From Haplodiscus bocki (lineage: Eukaryota): 64,000 nucleotides of DNA. The stretch is from the NCBI GenBank assembly GCA_965655095.1, contig OZ296656.1, positions 78,306,001 through 78,370,000 on the forward strand. The letters are read 5' to 3'. The notes beneath the pieces were generated by a model. It was given only the letters and a program-made list of their open reading frames with translations. It searched no databases and was not told where the DNA came from. Numbering within the stretch: position 1 is the first letter of the stretch; each line of letters begins with the position of its first letter. Of the stretch, positions 24,001 through 33,000 are shown piece after piece. The translations under genes were made by a program, and so were the position numbers.

Positions 24001-27000
24001 GACAGTTTTTGGTTGCGGTCAGAATTTTTGCTACTAGTTCGTCTGAGAAAACTGGAAAGTCGACCCATTTGCCACGAATCGCGAATTTCAGTTTTGTGTG
24101 TGATAGAAGTCCACTATCTATCAAAATTCCAACTCACAGAACTTTTTGTTTTTTATATCTTCTGCACTCAAAAAAATGTCGATTGAGGATTTGATGGGAG
24201 AAATCGAATTGGAGGAAATTGAGTCTGAAAATCTAGATAGTCAATGATTACGGCAACTCTTGGCTTGTTCCGCGTACTAGGGTTTCATTGGAATGATCGA
24301 AACCTGCTGTGTTTGTATTTCATTCTGTTCTACAAGTGGATACTCCTTCCGTGAGGACTTGAAGGAAAGAATCAAGCCGGGGTTTTGGAGGAAAGTGAGG
24401 TTGAAGATTGGTAAAAGTGAAATCCAATGTCATTTTGGCGTTTTCAGTTTGAGAATTCCGATGCATCAGACAAAATTCATTGAAAGCTTATTCACAAGTT
24501 GAAAACTGCCGATGAAGACATTAAATGAAAAAAAAGTTCATAGTTTTCGAGAAAGTTGAGTTTGAAAATCGAGAAAAATCGATACTAATGGTACTTTTGG
24601 GCATTTTCGGCCAATCAAATTTCCGATGCAAAGAGGAAAATCCTATTTTTTTTGTGTTGAAAGCCCTTCTAGAAGTTAAAAGCTTTCGACTAAGACACTG
24701 ATGGAAGAATTCCAGCAATTTGTTCTGCAGGAAAACGAGTTTGATCTACGAGAAAAATCAATGTCTCCACCTTTTTTGGACAAAAAAGATTTCGCAAAAC
24801 GAAGTTACGGTCTAGATGTTTTCGTTTTTTTTGAGACCCGGATAAGACCAACCTACAGTTGTTAGGAGTTTTGTTTCGAGTTTTATAATTTTTTACGAAT
24901 AATTTATTCAAAAGTATGGTGCTGATGTGGTTCGAACCAGGGCCGTCGCGTCTTACACCCGTGTATTTCGATTAACCACTACACTAAAGAAGTAAGGTAG
25001 TTGGCAAAGGAGCGGAGAAGAAAAAAAAAGGTCTACGTACTGAATATTAAGGAGGAAAATAATACCGAAAAGACGATAAACGTTGACTATGACCGGTGTG
25101 CTCTCATTTCTTTTTCTTGGATTTCAATGCGATCTTGGTTCACCTAAACCTTCAAGAAGTTACTCAATGTAGAAACCATTTATTCGACCTATCCTCTTTT
25201 TGCCCAGTAGGTCCTGAGTTGATGATGGTGGCCAAAAATGCCAGAACATAATCTTTATCGAAATTGACGGATTTTCAAAACAATGGTTCAGTAAATACCA
25301 AATTCATTTTGCTCTTTGAGTCATTATTCAGAGTGTAACTAATGGTGCTTAGAAGCGAATCTGTCGAGCAATTTTTCGAGATGCCTTCGATCAAGAAATG
25401 TGAGAAAACATTAAGTTTGGCGAATAAAGTCAGACCGACTTTTAATGCTTCCATAGGGGCCTATTTTCAGCAAATTTTATCACGCTGTTAGTCACAGCGA
25501 AAAATGCGGGTTGATGCAACAGGGCTTATGAAGAGTGAATTTCGGAACGGTTAAAAGTAAAGTAACTTAATGAATATTGAAAAACTTGAAATAATTAACT
25601 AAATACTGGTCCTAGCAGTTTTACTGACCCTTTTTTGAGGTCTTTTGCTCTAAACTGTTGTTTTACCAGTTCAGCTCCTTTAACCAGGGGAAGCAATCTA
25701 CATGTATATGTCACTATGTTTAAACACTGTAATTTTACAGGCCAACGATGCATGGCACTTTCCACGGCAGTGATGGTCGGGCAGTCCAAGGACTGGATTC
25801 CGGAGTTGGTGGAAAAAGCCAAAAAGTTGAAGGTCAACGCGGGAACCGAAAGCAACGCTGACCTTGGACCCGTTATCTCACCGGAAGCCAAAAAGAAAAT
25901 AGAAAGTTTGATCACCAGTGGAGAGAAAGAAGGTGCAAAAATTGTTTTAGATGGAAGAAACACTACTGTTGAAGGTAAGTGTTTATGATTTCTGAAAAGT
26001 TCGTTCATTTATTCCATGTTAAATTGAGTCACATTCATTGTCACTTCAGCAAAACCAATCAACTCAAGTTTGTCAGAAGTGTTGGAGCTGGTAGTTTGTT
26101 CACAACCTTTTTTTGGCGGTTTTGAATTTCATCGAAGCAAGTTGAGTTGTTCACGACCTTTTTTTCCCAATTTAGTTTTTGTATCTCTCAACACAGTTTT
26201 CTCGTTAGATCAACTAACATATCTGTGGTTCGCCGTTACCTCGGATACTCAGTGCTTATTTAGTCAAGCTTCAGCCAATTTTTCTTTTTTGCAATTTGCC
26301 TGTTGGAAATTAGTTCTACACAGGAATGGAAGACCACGAAAGGAAAACGAGATTAGTACGCTCACGTGCCTCGCACAAAGGTGTAGCAACACGTTACACA
26401 AACAAAGCAGCGCAAATTTTAGCAGTTCCGACAGCACAGCTCACAGTAGCACAGCGAAATGAATTGTTTGGCTTGAAAACAGCACTTGAGTCGAAGAGAA
26501 GCCTAATAGTAGATTTAGGCAGAGATTGAAATGATGATTGAAGACGACGATGCGTCGGAAGCAGAGGTGGCAGAATCGTCAGAGAACCTCGATGCCATTA
26601 CGCGAACGATCCTTCTGATCACGAGACTGCTCACAGAAACAGATAAACCAATGGCTATTATCAATCAGGCTCCGAGGGCAATGCAAGATGAGAGACGACA
26701 AACACGTCAAGGATTCAAATTACCAAAAATGAACATTCCAGTATTTTCCGGAGAGTATCTACAGTGGAACTCCTGTTGGGATTTTTTCAATGCCTCAGTG
26801 CACACCAACGAAACCTTAACGGATGCTCAGAGATTGCAATATCTTAAGGCATCGTTGAAAGGAGATGCAGCCAAAATTGTCAGCCATTTGACAATTACAG
26901 ATGCAAATTACGCGGGAGCCAGAAACGCACTTCAAACAAGGTATGCCAACCTTAGATTGATTGTTAGAAGCCACATCAGAGCTATGCTGGAAGTTCCAGT

Positions 27001-30000: not shown

Positions 30001-33000
30001 ATTTTGGCCGGAAAAGAATGTTTCAATCATGCGGACGAATCTTGGGGAGAAGCCAGCAAGTGTCAACGCAATGCAAGTACGAACTTGCCTTATAAAATTC
30101 CAAAGATTTTCAATTGCAAAACGTTTGATCAGAACCTGGGCTTTCGTAAATCGAGCACTTCAACTTATGAAACGTTCAAAAAGGGCACAATGCGGCCCCT
30201 TGACAGATCCAGAAATTCAGGTAGCACACTTCGAAATTCTGAGAGACGTACAGGAAGAAAGTTTCGACCAAGAAATTCGAGACATTGTTTCAAACGGTCA
30301 AGTTCAAAAATCAAGCCCATTGAGCAACCTCACGCCCTTCGTGGATGATCAAGGCCTTCTTCGTGTTGGGGGGAGGTTATCACAGTCAGAAAATCCAGAA
30401 GACAAAGTTTCCGATACTTTTACCAAAATGCCATTATTTCACTTGGTTGATCATCAGGCAATCTCATGAAGAAAACTTCCATTGTGGAACACAACAAACT
30501 TTATGCGCCATTCAACAGCAGTATTGGATACCTGCAGGCCGCAGTAAAGTCAAGCAATACGTGAGACAGTGTGTGAAATGCAAGAGATTTTCCGTGAAAG
30601 CAACAGTTCAACAGATGGGTGATCTTCCTGAGGAACGAATAACTCCTTCAAGACCATTCTTTCATACTGGATTGGACTTCGCAGGGCCACTAACAATTCG
30701 ACATGGTCCAGAAGATGTCCGGAAAGCATAAGTAGCACTGTTCGTCTGCTGTGCAACGAAGGCAATACATTTAGAATTAGTCTCAGACCCTTCCAAGGAA
30801 GCATATTTGTCTGCATTTCGACGATTTACAAGTCGTAGAGGACTCCCAAAGGTCTTATCTAGCGATAACGGGACTAATTTCATCGGCGCACGTAATGAAT
30901 TGATGAAAATACAGCGCTTACTCGCGAGACAAGTTGGACAAGATGACTTAGAAGACTATTGTGCAAACAAAGGAATTTCCTGGGTCTCAATTCCAACCCG
31001 TGCTCCACTTCGGTGGATTGTGGGAGGCATGTGTAAAAGGCATGAAGAGCCTCCTCAGAAGACAAATGGGCAGAATAGTACTAAATTTTGAGGAATTAGC
31101 GAATATACACCTACAGATCGAGCAAATACTCAATTCACGTCCTCTTACGCCATTATCGACCGATCCGAATGACGTTCAAGTTCTCACACCGGGGCACTTC
31201 CTCGTAGGTTCTCCGCTCACAGCGCTCCCAAGCAGCAACGAGAATGATACTGAGGTACCTGGTTTACAACGTTGGCGACTGATACAACTCTTGTTGCAGA
31301 GATTGTGGAAAAGATGGACAAGGGAATATTTACTCAATCAAATTCGAACAAAATGGCAGCACAAGAAGACGAATCTTGCAGTCAATGACCTAGTTTTCGT
31401 CACCGACAACCCCCCTTTACGTTGGCCTCTAGGACGAGTTGTTGCAGTATACACAGGTATTGATGATCTTGTTCGAGTTGCTACAGTTAAAACCCAAAAT
31501 GGCCTTACTAATCGACCAATCTCTAAATTGCCACTTATGGCTACATAGTTGCCCAGCTATCACTCAATTTTGATTTTCTGTTAATCACGTTAGCTTGTCA
31601 GTTCTCAGTCTATATTCAGCGCTATATTCAGTTATTGAGACCTGAAGCTCTATCACTGATTCAAATAGAAAGGAAGTTACATTAATTGTCACCTTGACCT
31701 CTTTGCGGATCCTCGGGCCCGCCACATCTCCCCTCCTCACCCCCCACCGAGTGGTGACTCAGCTCCTTGTAGCGGCGCTGGAGCTCCTCGTCGTCCACCA
31801 GCAGCTCCGATATTGTCAGCCAACAAGATGCAGATGGAACAGTCAGTACACAGTGTGACCAACCATACGGTTGATATAGACTCTCCATCTTCTTGAATGG
31901 CCAACAGGAACCGCGGTCCCTTCCTCTTGTCCTTCATCAACTGCTGCACGTCTGACAAGGTCAAGGAGGACGCTACTCGACCAACCCTTTCTGCGTCTCT
32001 GCTCTCGGGCGCTCTGAACAGCCACAGCTTCCGGCCTCCAGACACAGTGCAAACCGCGGACTGTGGTGGCTTAATATCTTGGTGAAAGGCGCGGAAACTG
32101 TAGCCAGTCAACCCGAGACGCACCTCATTGCCCAGCTTGTGCACGTCGCTTTTCTTCCGGAAACCCAGGGCTTCGTCAAAGGGAGACACGAACTCAATCC
32201 ACTGGGTTCCGTCAAAGGTGCGGTCCTGGACAATGCGACCTCTTCTCTCGTCATAGTGCAGCGTGACTTTGGCTTCTACAGAGGTTACCCCCGGCACCGA
32301 GGAGTCAATCGAGTGCACCCCGGTCTTGATCCTACTGGGCCTCGAGAAGTCTATCTCCCCGAAGGAATCAAAACACCAGTGCACCATTCTTTCGATTGCT
32401 CCTCATACAGCTCATTCATGTTCTCCTTGGGATCCCTCATGGTGGCCTTTGAACGTGTCGTCCCTTTAGACATTGTAAATCTGAAATATGTTTTTATTGA
32501 GCTCGTATAGTCCAAGGGGTGGAGTATGTTTACGATTTGTGAAAAGTTCGTTCATTTATTCCATGTTAAATTGAGTCACATTCATTGTCACTTCAGCAAA
32601 ACCAATCAAATCATGTTTGTCAGAATTCTTGGAGCTGGCTGTTTGTTCACAACCTTTTTTTGGCAATTTTGAATTTCATCGAAGCAAGTTGAGTTGTTGA
32701 CGTCCTTTTTTTCCCAATTTAGTTTTTGTATCTCTCAACACAGTTTTCTCGTTAGATCAACTAACAGTAAGGTTCACTGAAAACAGTTGGAGGATTACAT
32801 TTTCAATCTCGAACTTTGAAGACCGACTCGAATTTCGGAGACAAAGTCTCAATAGCGGGAAAGGGCGTCAGAAACAACATGGGATCAAAGTTCATCATTT
32901 TTTCCCTGGTTGATTTTTTTGGGAGACAAAAATTGGACGAACATTTCGAAATAAAGATTATTCGTTTGCTGGCGATTGTGTGTGACTAGTCTCGAAATAT

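Follow-up and report, generated by a model that had tools for sequence, protein, structure and literature searches.

A BEL/Pao retrotransposon at the exon 5 splice donor of ALDH6A1, very probably a chance insertion that leaves the donor whole

The ALDH6A1 locus and the element in intron 5

The window, that is, the whole stretch of 64,000 nucleotides that was analysed, carries ALDH6A1, a single-copy enzyme gene with six coding exons (in all splice motifs below a slash marks the splice junction):

17867-18048, forward strand: first coding exon of ALDH6A1 (methylmalonate-semialdehyde dehydrogenase)
18393-18701, 19956-20134 and 21483-21725, forward strand: coding exons 2 to 4
25741-25974, forward strand: exon 5, Aldedh, holding GQRCMA and ending ...GAAG in phase 1
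37298-37725, forward strand: exon 6, the last coding exon, acceptor TTTTGAAG/GT

Joined, the six exons gave a stop-free frame of 524 aa with 474 identities to a 521-aa relative (P0004), and this intact frame confirms the exon 5/6 junction (25974>37298) at the protein level. The product has an Aldedh domain and its best named matches were MMSDH proteins, as expected of ALDH6A1; the Cys of GQRCMA in exon 5 is presumably the catalytic Cys. The donor of intron 1 is most likely CG/GACAGT (a GA-AG intron), with GT/GTTCTG, 6 nt further, as the alternative. Intron 5 is occupied by a decayed BEL/Pao LTR retrotransposon of 6,787 bp (25980-32766), inserted in the sense orientation:

25975-25979, forward strand: upstream copy of the target-site duplication (TSD) GTAAG, intron positions +1 to +5, which with the T of the LTR gives AAG/GTAAGT
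25980-26219, forward strand: 5' LTR, 240 bp, TG...CA (TGTTT...ACTAACA)
26220-26240, forward strand: family-conserved stretch after the 5' LTR, putative PBS by position
26519-31548, forward strand: decayed gag-pol over several frames, with DUF1759, aspartyl protease, Peptidase_A17, Integrase_H2C2, rve and DUF5641
31737-32402, reverse strand: stop-free frame of 221 codons, disrupted in sister copies
32512-32526, forward strand: purine-rich tract in the PPT position, common to the family, preceding the 3' LTR
32527-32766, forward strand: 3' LTR, 95% identical to the 5' LTR, ending in the family-wide AACTAACA
32767-32771, forward strand: downstream copy of GTAAG, giving the weaker donor-like ACA/GTAAGG
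32772-32775, forward strand: GTTC, the host bases directly after GTAAG in the element-free allele

The initial annotation of this DNA had proposed that the duplicated GTAAG is the exon 5 donor itself, and the gene model bears this out: the exon ends with ...GAAG at 25974 and the LTR begins with TGTTT at intron position +6 (25980). Assignment to BEL/Pao is based on the direct TG...CA LTRs with a 5-bp TSD and on a DUF1759 gag, protease, Peptidase_A17, integrase and DUF5641 in gag-PR-RT-RH-IN order. PF03564 (E 8e-35), PF05380 (E 2e-50), PF17921 and PF18701 scored over the Pfam cut-off, and PF13650 and PF00665 below it; no RT match was found in the ORFs scanned, the RT region being split over frames. 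Between the two LTRs there are differences at 12 of 240 sites (K2P 0.052), inside the range of LTR identity of the family (88.8-97.5% across 14 pairs), and in 15 of 17 two-sided sister insertions the TSD copies differ by at most one mismatch. The antisense frame of 221 codons had no Pfam match and no PDB match under E 0.7. Its Atlas leads were all below 0.9 and pointed, with low recognition, to JmjC clusters.

Filled and empty alleles and the predicted splicing of intron 5

A pre-insertion donor G/GTAAGG, as postulated earlier, is backed by an element-free allele: contigs of X2 and X4 run past 25979 straight into GTTC, without the LTR. Because this allele reads GTAAG-GTTC in two samples, the insertion site is polymorphic, and the filled allele seems to exist alongside the empty one. 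The contigs of X1 and X3 end exactly at 25979, as a two-allele fork would produce. Exon 5 showed SNPs at 25852, 25868 and 25874. No contig across 25979/25980 was seen in four runs, and this would fit a filled allele that is an artefact of assembly; contig holes, however, prove nothing. We regard an artefact as very improbable, since the 5-bp TSD is perfect on both sides and is then followed by GTTC as in the empty allele, the two LTRs are distinct, lying 5% apart and inside the family range, and the halt of the X1 and X3 contigs is fork-like. On the element-free haplotype, moreover, the donor is present a second time 32 nt downstream; the sequence that follows the duplication on that haplotype has no copy within the window.

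The donor consensus used for scoring was MAG/GTRAGT. The pre-insertion donor matches it at 8/9 positions and the 3' copy at 6/9, whereas the upstream donor of the filled allele matches at 9/9, the first T of the LTR having turned it into AAG/GTAAGT, as had been suggested. When the register of the insertion was varied, GTAAG stayed whole only with a TSD starting at +1 or later, in both orientations, and, of the registers tested, +1 to +5 lay innermost among those with an undamaged donor. Either end of the LTR, read inward, begins with TG, which puts a T at +6 whichever way the element is oriented. Registers lying further upstream disrupt the donor, and for that reason selection would tend to keep +1 to +5. 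From these motifs, the upstream AAG/GTAAGT is predicted to be used, with removal of the element within an intron of 11.3 kb, and the downstream ACA/GTAAGG to be mostly silent. Among the tandem identical donors of human F7, the most upstream one is reported to be chosen (PMC1557585).

It is possible, if rather unlikely, that a chance insertion at this site is nevertheless not silent, and that some transcripts use ACA/GTAAGG, terminate within the element or begin in the 3' LTR with splicing to exon 6, making the filled allele a weaker one. The element lies in the sense orientation, and intronic LTR elements so oriented are reported to be selected against in humans (PMC1794541). Moreover, an AATAAA is present at 27302, the LTR contains several pyrimidine-rich AGs, and the insertion is unfixed despite the 5% divergence of the LTRs. 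There is also a precedent in Yaoer, an LTR retrotransposon in SfCHS2 of Spodoptera frugiperda, with wild-type mRNA reported at 0.08 of normal, or 12-fold down, although its rebuilt donor consisted of GT followed by LTR sequence (PMC11249258). Against a weaker allele, it is the upstream donor that matches the consensus in full, and the downstream one falls short of it at three positions; neither LTR has a sense AATAAA or ATTAAA; both LTR ATGs run into stops ahead of exon 6; and the first ATG in frame within exon 6 would give a fragment of 123 aa without exon 5. The spare donor 32 nt on in the element-free haplotype, in turn, suggests tolerance.

The end of the 3' LTR had also been likened to a recursive-splicing site, on account of ACTAAC-AG at 32760-32767. 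The motif is there: ACTAAC is branch-point-like, an AG comes next and pyrimidine runs lie upstream, so that the LTR end and the TSD could be imagined to remove the element in a first splicing step. We find this scarcely credible. The AG and the GT share one G (CAG/TAAG) and there is no AGGT, whereas recursive sites have been searched for as Y5+N0-4YAGGT (PMC10156609). The branch A of ACTAAC (32764) lies 3 nt from the 3' end, compared with 10-60 nt in humans (PMC5378181), a result that covers this ACTAAC alone. Splicing to 32767 would bring back a donor that lies one base within exon 5 and would shift the frame. Finally, AACTAACA terminates 31/40 LTR copies and is thus the plain LTR end of the family; any copy with a TSD starting in G reads identically. 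With neither YAG/GT in series nor, for this ACTAAC, the usual branch-point distance, a recursive splice site is not supported.

Target-site duplications of related insertions

The initial annotation had left a choice between a lucky tolerated insertion and a splice-site-directed integration preference. We surveyed the TSDs of 25 insertions of the element's own family and of 135 Pao insertions of several families in the same genome. For the Pao set, 100 of the 150 PF05380 matches listed were taken, own-family and weakest rows being skipped. Left out were one of two identical C12 copies, the right flank of L089 (which looked internal), 6/16 LTR-pair rows with a TSD mismatch above 1 (some regained later via family boundaries) and 4/65 rows (3 internal junctions and 1 duplicate); one pair was merged. 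TSDs were varied, and GTRAG, in either orientation, was found in 0/25 own-family insertions; it was likewise found in 0/135 Pao insertions (95% upper bound 2.2%). The survey thus supports the lucky, tolerated insertion and speaks against the directed preference; such variety had been named in the initial annotation as one mark of a chance event.

The bias in the TSDs was weak: G/C occupied 141/270 end positions (background 0.36) and T2/A4 106/270, which raises the likelihood of GTAAG about 2.5-fold over background. From the TSD matrix, GTAAG has a frequency of 1.04% per insertion, or 1.4 expected in 136, and 1 was seen; as a 5-mer, GTAAG is not beyond chance. With an assumed number of donors, a match to a real donor has a probability of about 1e-4 to 6e-4 per insertion, which is rare per insertion and not rare per genome.

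Within 12 nt of the TSD, GTRAGT occurred 6 times in the first 75 insertions, against 1.0 expected (p 0.0006, post hoc, as two of the six matches, L070 and L079, had prompted the test). In a replication set it occurred 0 times against 1.1 expected (P = 0.0015 under the enrichment of the first set), and over all 135 insertions 6 times against 2.1 (p 0.02). Among 2048 words, GTRAGT ranked 4 in the first set, 1510 in the replication and 47 when pooled; a reversed-word control was flat. For the replication, three preset families gave 10 new junctions and two families (50 junctions) were added before computing; 43/60 junctions were one-sided. One of the six near matches sits in a dispersed repeat (49 matches) in which the word is also GTGAG, GCAAG or GTTAG. 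One other insertion site reads AAG/GTGACT; inspected by eye, neither this site nor L079 had a convincing coding frame upstream. Of 98 stop-free frames abutting junctions (68/135 insertions), 1 matched Pfam, in mid-exon and not at a donor, in a scan that recovered the focal exon as positive control and in which many exons are missed by Pfam and UTR exons are invisible. In sum, the insertions surveyed had no common target word or register, and by Pfam match they did not abut exon ends.

Donor-directed integration as the dominant mode is already refuted by the absence of GTRAG from both sets. One could still suppose that sequence or a splicing factor directs the integrase to 5' splice sites, the TG end restoring the donor and genes offering a safe harbour. 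The focal TSD does cover exactly +1 to +5 of a real donor, the GTRAGT excess of the first set and the AAG/GTGACT site point the same way, and Yaoer likewise struck an exon-intron junction. The excess, however, was post hoc and vanished on replication, one of its matches belongs to a repeat with variant words, the two sites inspected were not convincing, and Yaoer, found through resistance selection, is an ascertained case. Such guidance thus seems highly implausible. A preference of less than about 2% is compatible with the count of 0/135 and, at real donors, would even so lie far above chance; we give very little credence to the corresponding proposal that a minority (below about 2%) of Pao integrations is steered to 5' splice sites, where TSD and TG rebuild the donor and the element is hidden in the intron. 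Among the papers listed in literature searches, none reported an LTR family targeting splice donors, which does not prove absence.

Very probably, then, the element arrived at the exon 5 donor by chance and survived since exon 5 would still be spliced to exon 6 in the normal way, with GTAAG at either flank and a complete donor upstream. The integrase would have cut in its usual fashion, with a stagger of 5 nt, at intron positions +1 to +5, and repair would have copied GTAAG to both flanks; the upstream donor would be used and the whole element would leave within the intron. Survivorship would do the rest, chance insertions that leave the donor whole being those retained.

As a lone chance event the insertion matters little. 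It illustrates neatly that a 5-bp TSD together with a TG end allows a sense insertion of 6.8 kb to occupy the donor of a single-copy gene. Since both the filled and the empty allele seem to be present, it would offer a convenient allele-specific test of the cost of insertion. Its importance would rise much only if integration were donor-guided, for which the 135 other junctions give no support; steering of less than about 2%, if true, would give LTR elements a safe harbour at splice sites.

Comparison with known systems

In recursive splice sites, as here, an AG lies near a GT donor word within a long intron, but they need YAG/GT in series, whereas in ALDH6A1 the AG and the GT have one G in common and re-splicing would shift the frame (PMC10156609). 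The Drosophila Pao elements roo, 3S18 and Max are also reported to make 5-bp TSDs, at a low-information palindromic target motif; that motif is AT-rich (AWTAWNWTAWT), whereas here the TSD ends lean to G/C with T2/A4 (PMC3276498). In the minisatellite of human F7 intron 7 the authentic donor is followed by downstream copies, as here; those copies are identical, 37 bp apart and VNTR-made, whereas ALDH6A1 has a single weaker copy, 6.8 kb on and TSD-made (PMC1557585).

The closest parallel is Yaoer (6.4 kb), which likewise sits at an exon-intron junction and is flanked by a TSD of 5 bp (PMC11249258). That paper does not describe Yaoer as a Pao element, the word having 0 hits in it. There, the first T of the LTR is described as rebuilding the upstream GT donor and the second TSD copy as restoring the downstream donor; the same logic applies here, and donor rebuilding by TSD plus TG is thus already published for Yaoer in SfCHS2. 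The two insertions differ in register, the TSD of Yaoer covering -4 to +1 (GAAGG), with the intron from +2 onward derived from the LTR, and that of the ALDH6A1 element +1 to +5. Unlike in Yaoer, the upstream donor in ALDH6A1 is complete and the downstream copy is the one without the exonic AG.

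Insertion site, element and host gene

The initial annotation described a sense LTR insertion whose target-site duplication (TSD) is the splice donor itself, and this layout was borne out, all of its parts being present in the window:

up to 25974, + strand: end of exon 5, GAAG (read from sequence)
25975-25979, + strand: upstream TSD copy, GTAAG (read from sequence)
25980-26219, + strand: 5′ LTR (repeat comparison)
32527-32766, + strand: 3′ LTR (repeat comparison)
32767-32771, + strand: downstream TSD copy, GTAAG, followed by GTTC

The two LTRs are unlike at 12 of 240 sites (K2P 0.052); LTR pairs within the element's own family are 88.8-97.5% identical (n = 14 pairs). 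The interior carries a sense BEL/Pao gag-pol, split across several frames, with DUF1759, Peptidase_A17, Integrase_H2C2 and DUF5641 over the Pfam cut-off. Judged from its domains, LTRs and TSD, the element is a member of BEL/Pao; the ORFs scanned gave no Pfam match to a reverse transcriptase, whose region is split between frames. Its 3′ region also contains an antisense frame of 221 codons (31737-32402, - strand) that had no match in Pfam or PDB and pointed weakly to JmjC clusters in Atlas (0.86-0.89); in sister copies the frame is split near residue 175 or interrupted by stops. A tandem array in the same intron (32797-35090) has four units of about 571 bp that are 83-99% alike. Elsewhere in the window, an AT-rich stretch of 17.6 kb (40012-57618) with terminal inverted repeats 97-99% alike encodes DNA_pol_B_2, rve integrase and double-jelly-roll domains, and we take it to be a Maverick/Polinton-like element. 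A Tc5/pogo-type transposase remnant (DDE_1, HTH_Tnp_Tc5) flanked by short repeats is found at 4599-6078.

The host gene is ALDH6A1, as its named matches are methylmalonate-semialdehyde dehydrogenases. Six coding exons give a stop-free frame of 524 aa with 474 identities to P0004, an unnamed 521-aa relative in which VVEGYED spans the 25974/37298 junction; exon 5 has a single match in the genome. For intron 1 (18046-18060, 18370-18395), the best alignment uses a GA donor, CG/GACAGT (slashes mark splice boundaries; 524 aa, score 2473), a GT 6 nt further on gives 526 aa and a score of 2461, and the acceptor is without a pyrimidine tract. Intron 1 may be a GA-AG intron, of a kind known from Eurytemora and Oikopleura (PMC7072748), or may reflect a haplotype-specific donor mutation or a base error.

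The insertion site is polymorphic

We compared contigs from four runs (X1-X4), from at most two samples of one study. Contigs from sample S2 (run X2) and sample S1 (run X4) cross 25979 into GTTC, the same four bases found 3′ of the second TSD in the window, without an LTR. They read GTAAG-GTTC, supporting G/GTAAGG as the pre-insertion donor, as initially proposed, and the site is therefore polymorphic. In both runs, the GTAAG-GTTC of the element-free haplotype is followed by a 28-nt tandem copy of 25952-25979, which comprises the end of exon 5 and GTAAG; this haplotype thus has a second donor of its own, 32 nt downstream. This is a second, independent duplication of the donor at the same site; the letters beyond the 28-nt copy were not found in the window. 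Contigs of X1 and X3 end exactly at 25979, and none in the four runs joins 25979 to the LTR; holes in contigs prove nothing, and the run that matches best may be the source of the assembly.

Origin of the duplicated donor

The GTAAG duplication on the ALDH6A1 donor is a real feature, most likely with an ordinary cause: a 5-nt staggered cut at intron positions +1 to +5 would have copied GTAAG to both sides. If 1.5 Gb is assumed to contain 1-2 x 10^5 donors, each insertion would hit one with a probability of 0.7-6 x 10^-4, or 0.07-0.6 times among 1061 Pao candidates; other LTR groups would add to this figure. When the TSD was slid across the donor, starts upstream of +1 lost or weakened it (e.g., AAG/GTGTTT, AAG/GTAATG), and a start at +1 gave AAG/GTAAGT in both orientations, because both ends of this LTR, read inwards, give TG. 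The 'ideal' T at +6 that completes AAG/GTAAGT, as initially noted, is thus a property of TG...CA ends. Survivorship would favour the +1 to +5 register.

The proposal of a splice-site-directed preference found no support in a survey of TSDs. LTR searches with flanks yielded 25 other own-family insertions, 17 two-sided (TSD pairs exact in 9, with one mismatch in 6 and two in 2) and 8 one-sided; none of the 25 has a GTRAG TSD in either orientation. One own-family insertion occurs in two identical copies about 40 kb apart (L013/L014, L043/L044; G000:C12:29.61 and 29.65 Mb), either a segmental duplication or an assembly duplicate. For other Pao families, a PF05380 search returned the 1061 candidates, of which 150 were scored and 100 taken, with further flanks. 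GTRAG TSDs numbered 0 of 75 insertions in this first set, own family included, 0 of 60 in a second set obtained via LTR searches and family boundaries, and 0 of 135 pooled (76 two-sided; upper 95% bound 2.2%). Pao TSDs show a weak, symmetric bias, with G/C in 141 of 270 end positions against a background of 0.36 (p 4e-8) and T2/A4 in 106 of 270 (p 0.007). By the TSD matrix, GTAAG is 2.5-fold and GTGAG 4.3-fold above background, together 1.04% per insertion; 1.4 are expected per 136, and one was seen. In two other Pao families (fam1 and fam2; L120, L142 and kin) the LTRs end in the non-canonical ...AATA and ...GTAAAA, not ...CA, backed by 5-bp TSD pairs at 12 fam1 insertions and one fam2 insertion.

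Donor guidance of a rare kind we consider very improbable. One result ran counter to the chance reading: in the first 75 insertions, GTRAGT started within 12 nt of the TSD in 6 cases against 1.0 expected (p 0.0006). That test was prompted by two of its own six matches, and one of the six is part of a dispersed repeat that has 49 matches. In a replication fixed beforehand, with families added before computing, the 60 new insertions gave 0 against 1.1 expected (P = 0.0015 were the first enrichment real); pooled, the count is 6 against 2.1 (p 0.02), which places GTRAGT 47th among 2048 words. Stop-free frames of at least 33 codons adjoining junctions (n = 98, from 68 of the 135 insertions; focal exon as positive control) gave one Pfam match, an oxysterol-binding-protein frame that runs on past the TSD, indicating a mid-exon insertion (TSD GCCGT; L098:2229-2483 / L293, G000:C11:40.82 Mb). 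A literature search at the level of listings found no report of a donor-targeting LTR family.

Predicted splicing and known systems

The donor consensus is MAG/GTRAGT, to which the site matches at 8/9 positions before insertion, 9/9 after, and 6/9 in the downstream copy. The higher score upstream predicts that AAG/GTAAGT would win over the downstream donor; in human F7, the most upstream among repeated donors is chosen (PMC1557585). A putative LTR-started RNA spliced 32766>37298 would contain two ATGs from the LTR, each of which runs into a stop ahead of exon 6. The first in-frame ATG in exon 6 gives 123 aa without exon 5, a fragment that is unlikely to work as an enzyme; the catalytic Cys (in GQRCMA) lies in exon 5.

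The suggested resemblance of the 3′ LTR end and TSD to a recursive-splicing site fails on motif, branch distance and register. The site reads CAG/TAAG, against the search motif Y5+N0-4YAGGT (PMC10156609); the branch A of ACTAAC is 3 nt off the 3′ end, the human range being 10-60 nt (PMC5378181); and re-splicing would begin one base within exon 5. The sequence AACTAACA ends 31 of 40 LTR copies.

Drosophila Pao elements likewise have 5-bp TSDs with low-information palindromic motifs (PMC3276498). By analogy, the insertion possibly carries a cost: selection against sense intronic LTR elements is described in humans (PMC1794541), and with Yaoer in SfCHS2 the wild-type mRNA is down to 0.08 (PMC11249258). 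In Yaoer too, the TSD and the LTR's T rebuild the donor and a second donor lies downstream, with the TSD in another register; the geometry in ALDH6A1 is thus, in that other register, already described (PMC11249258).
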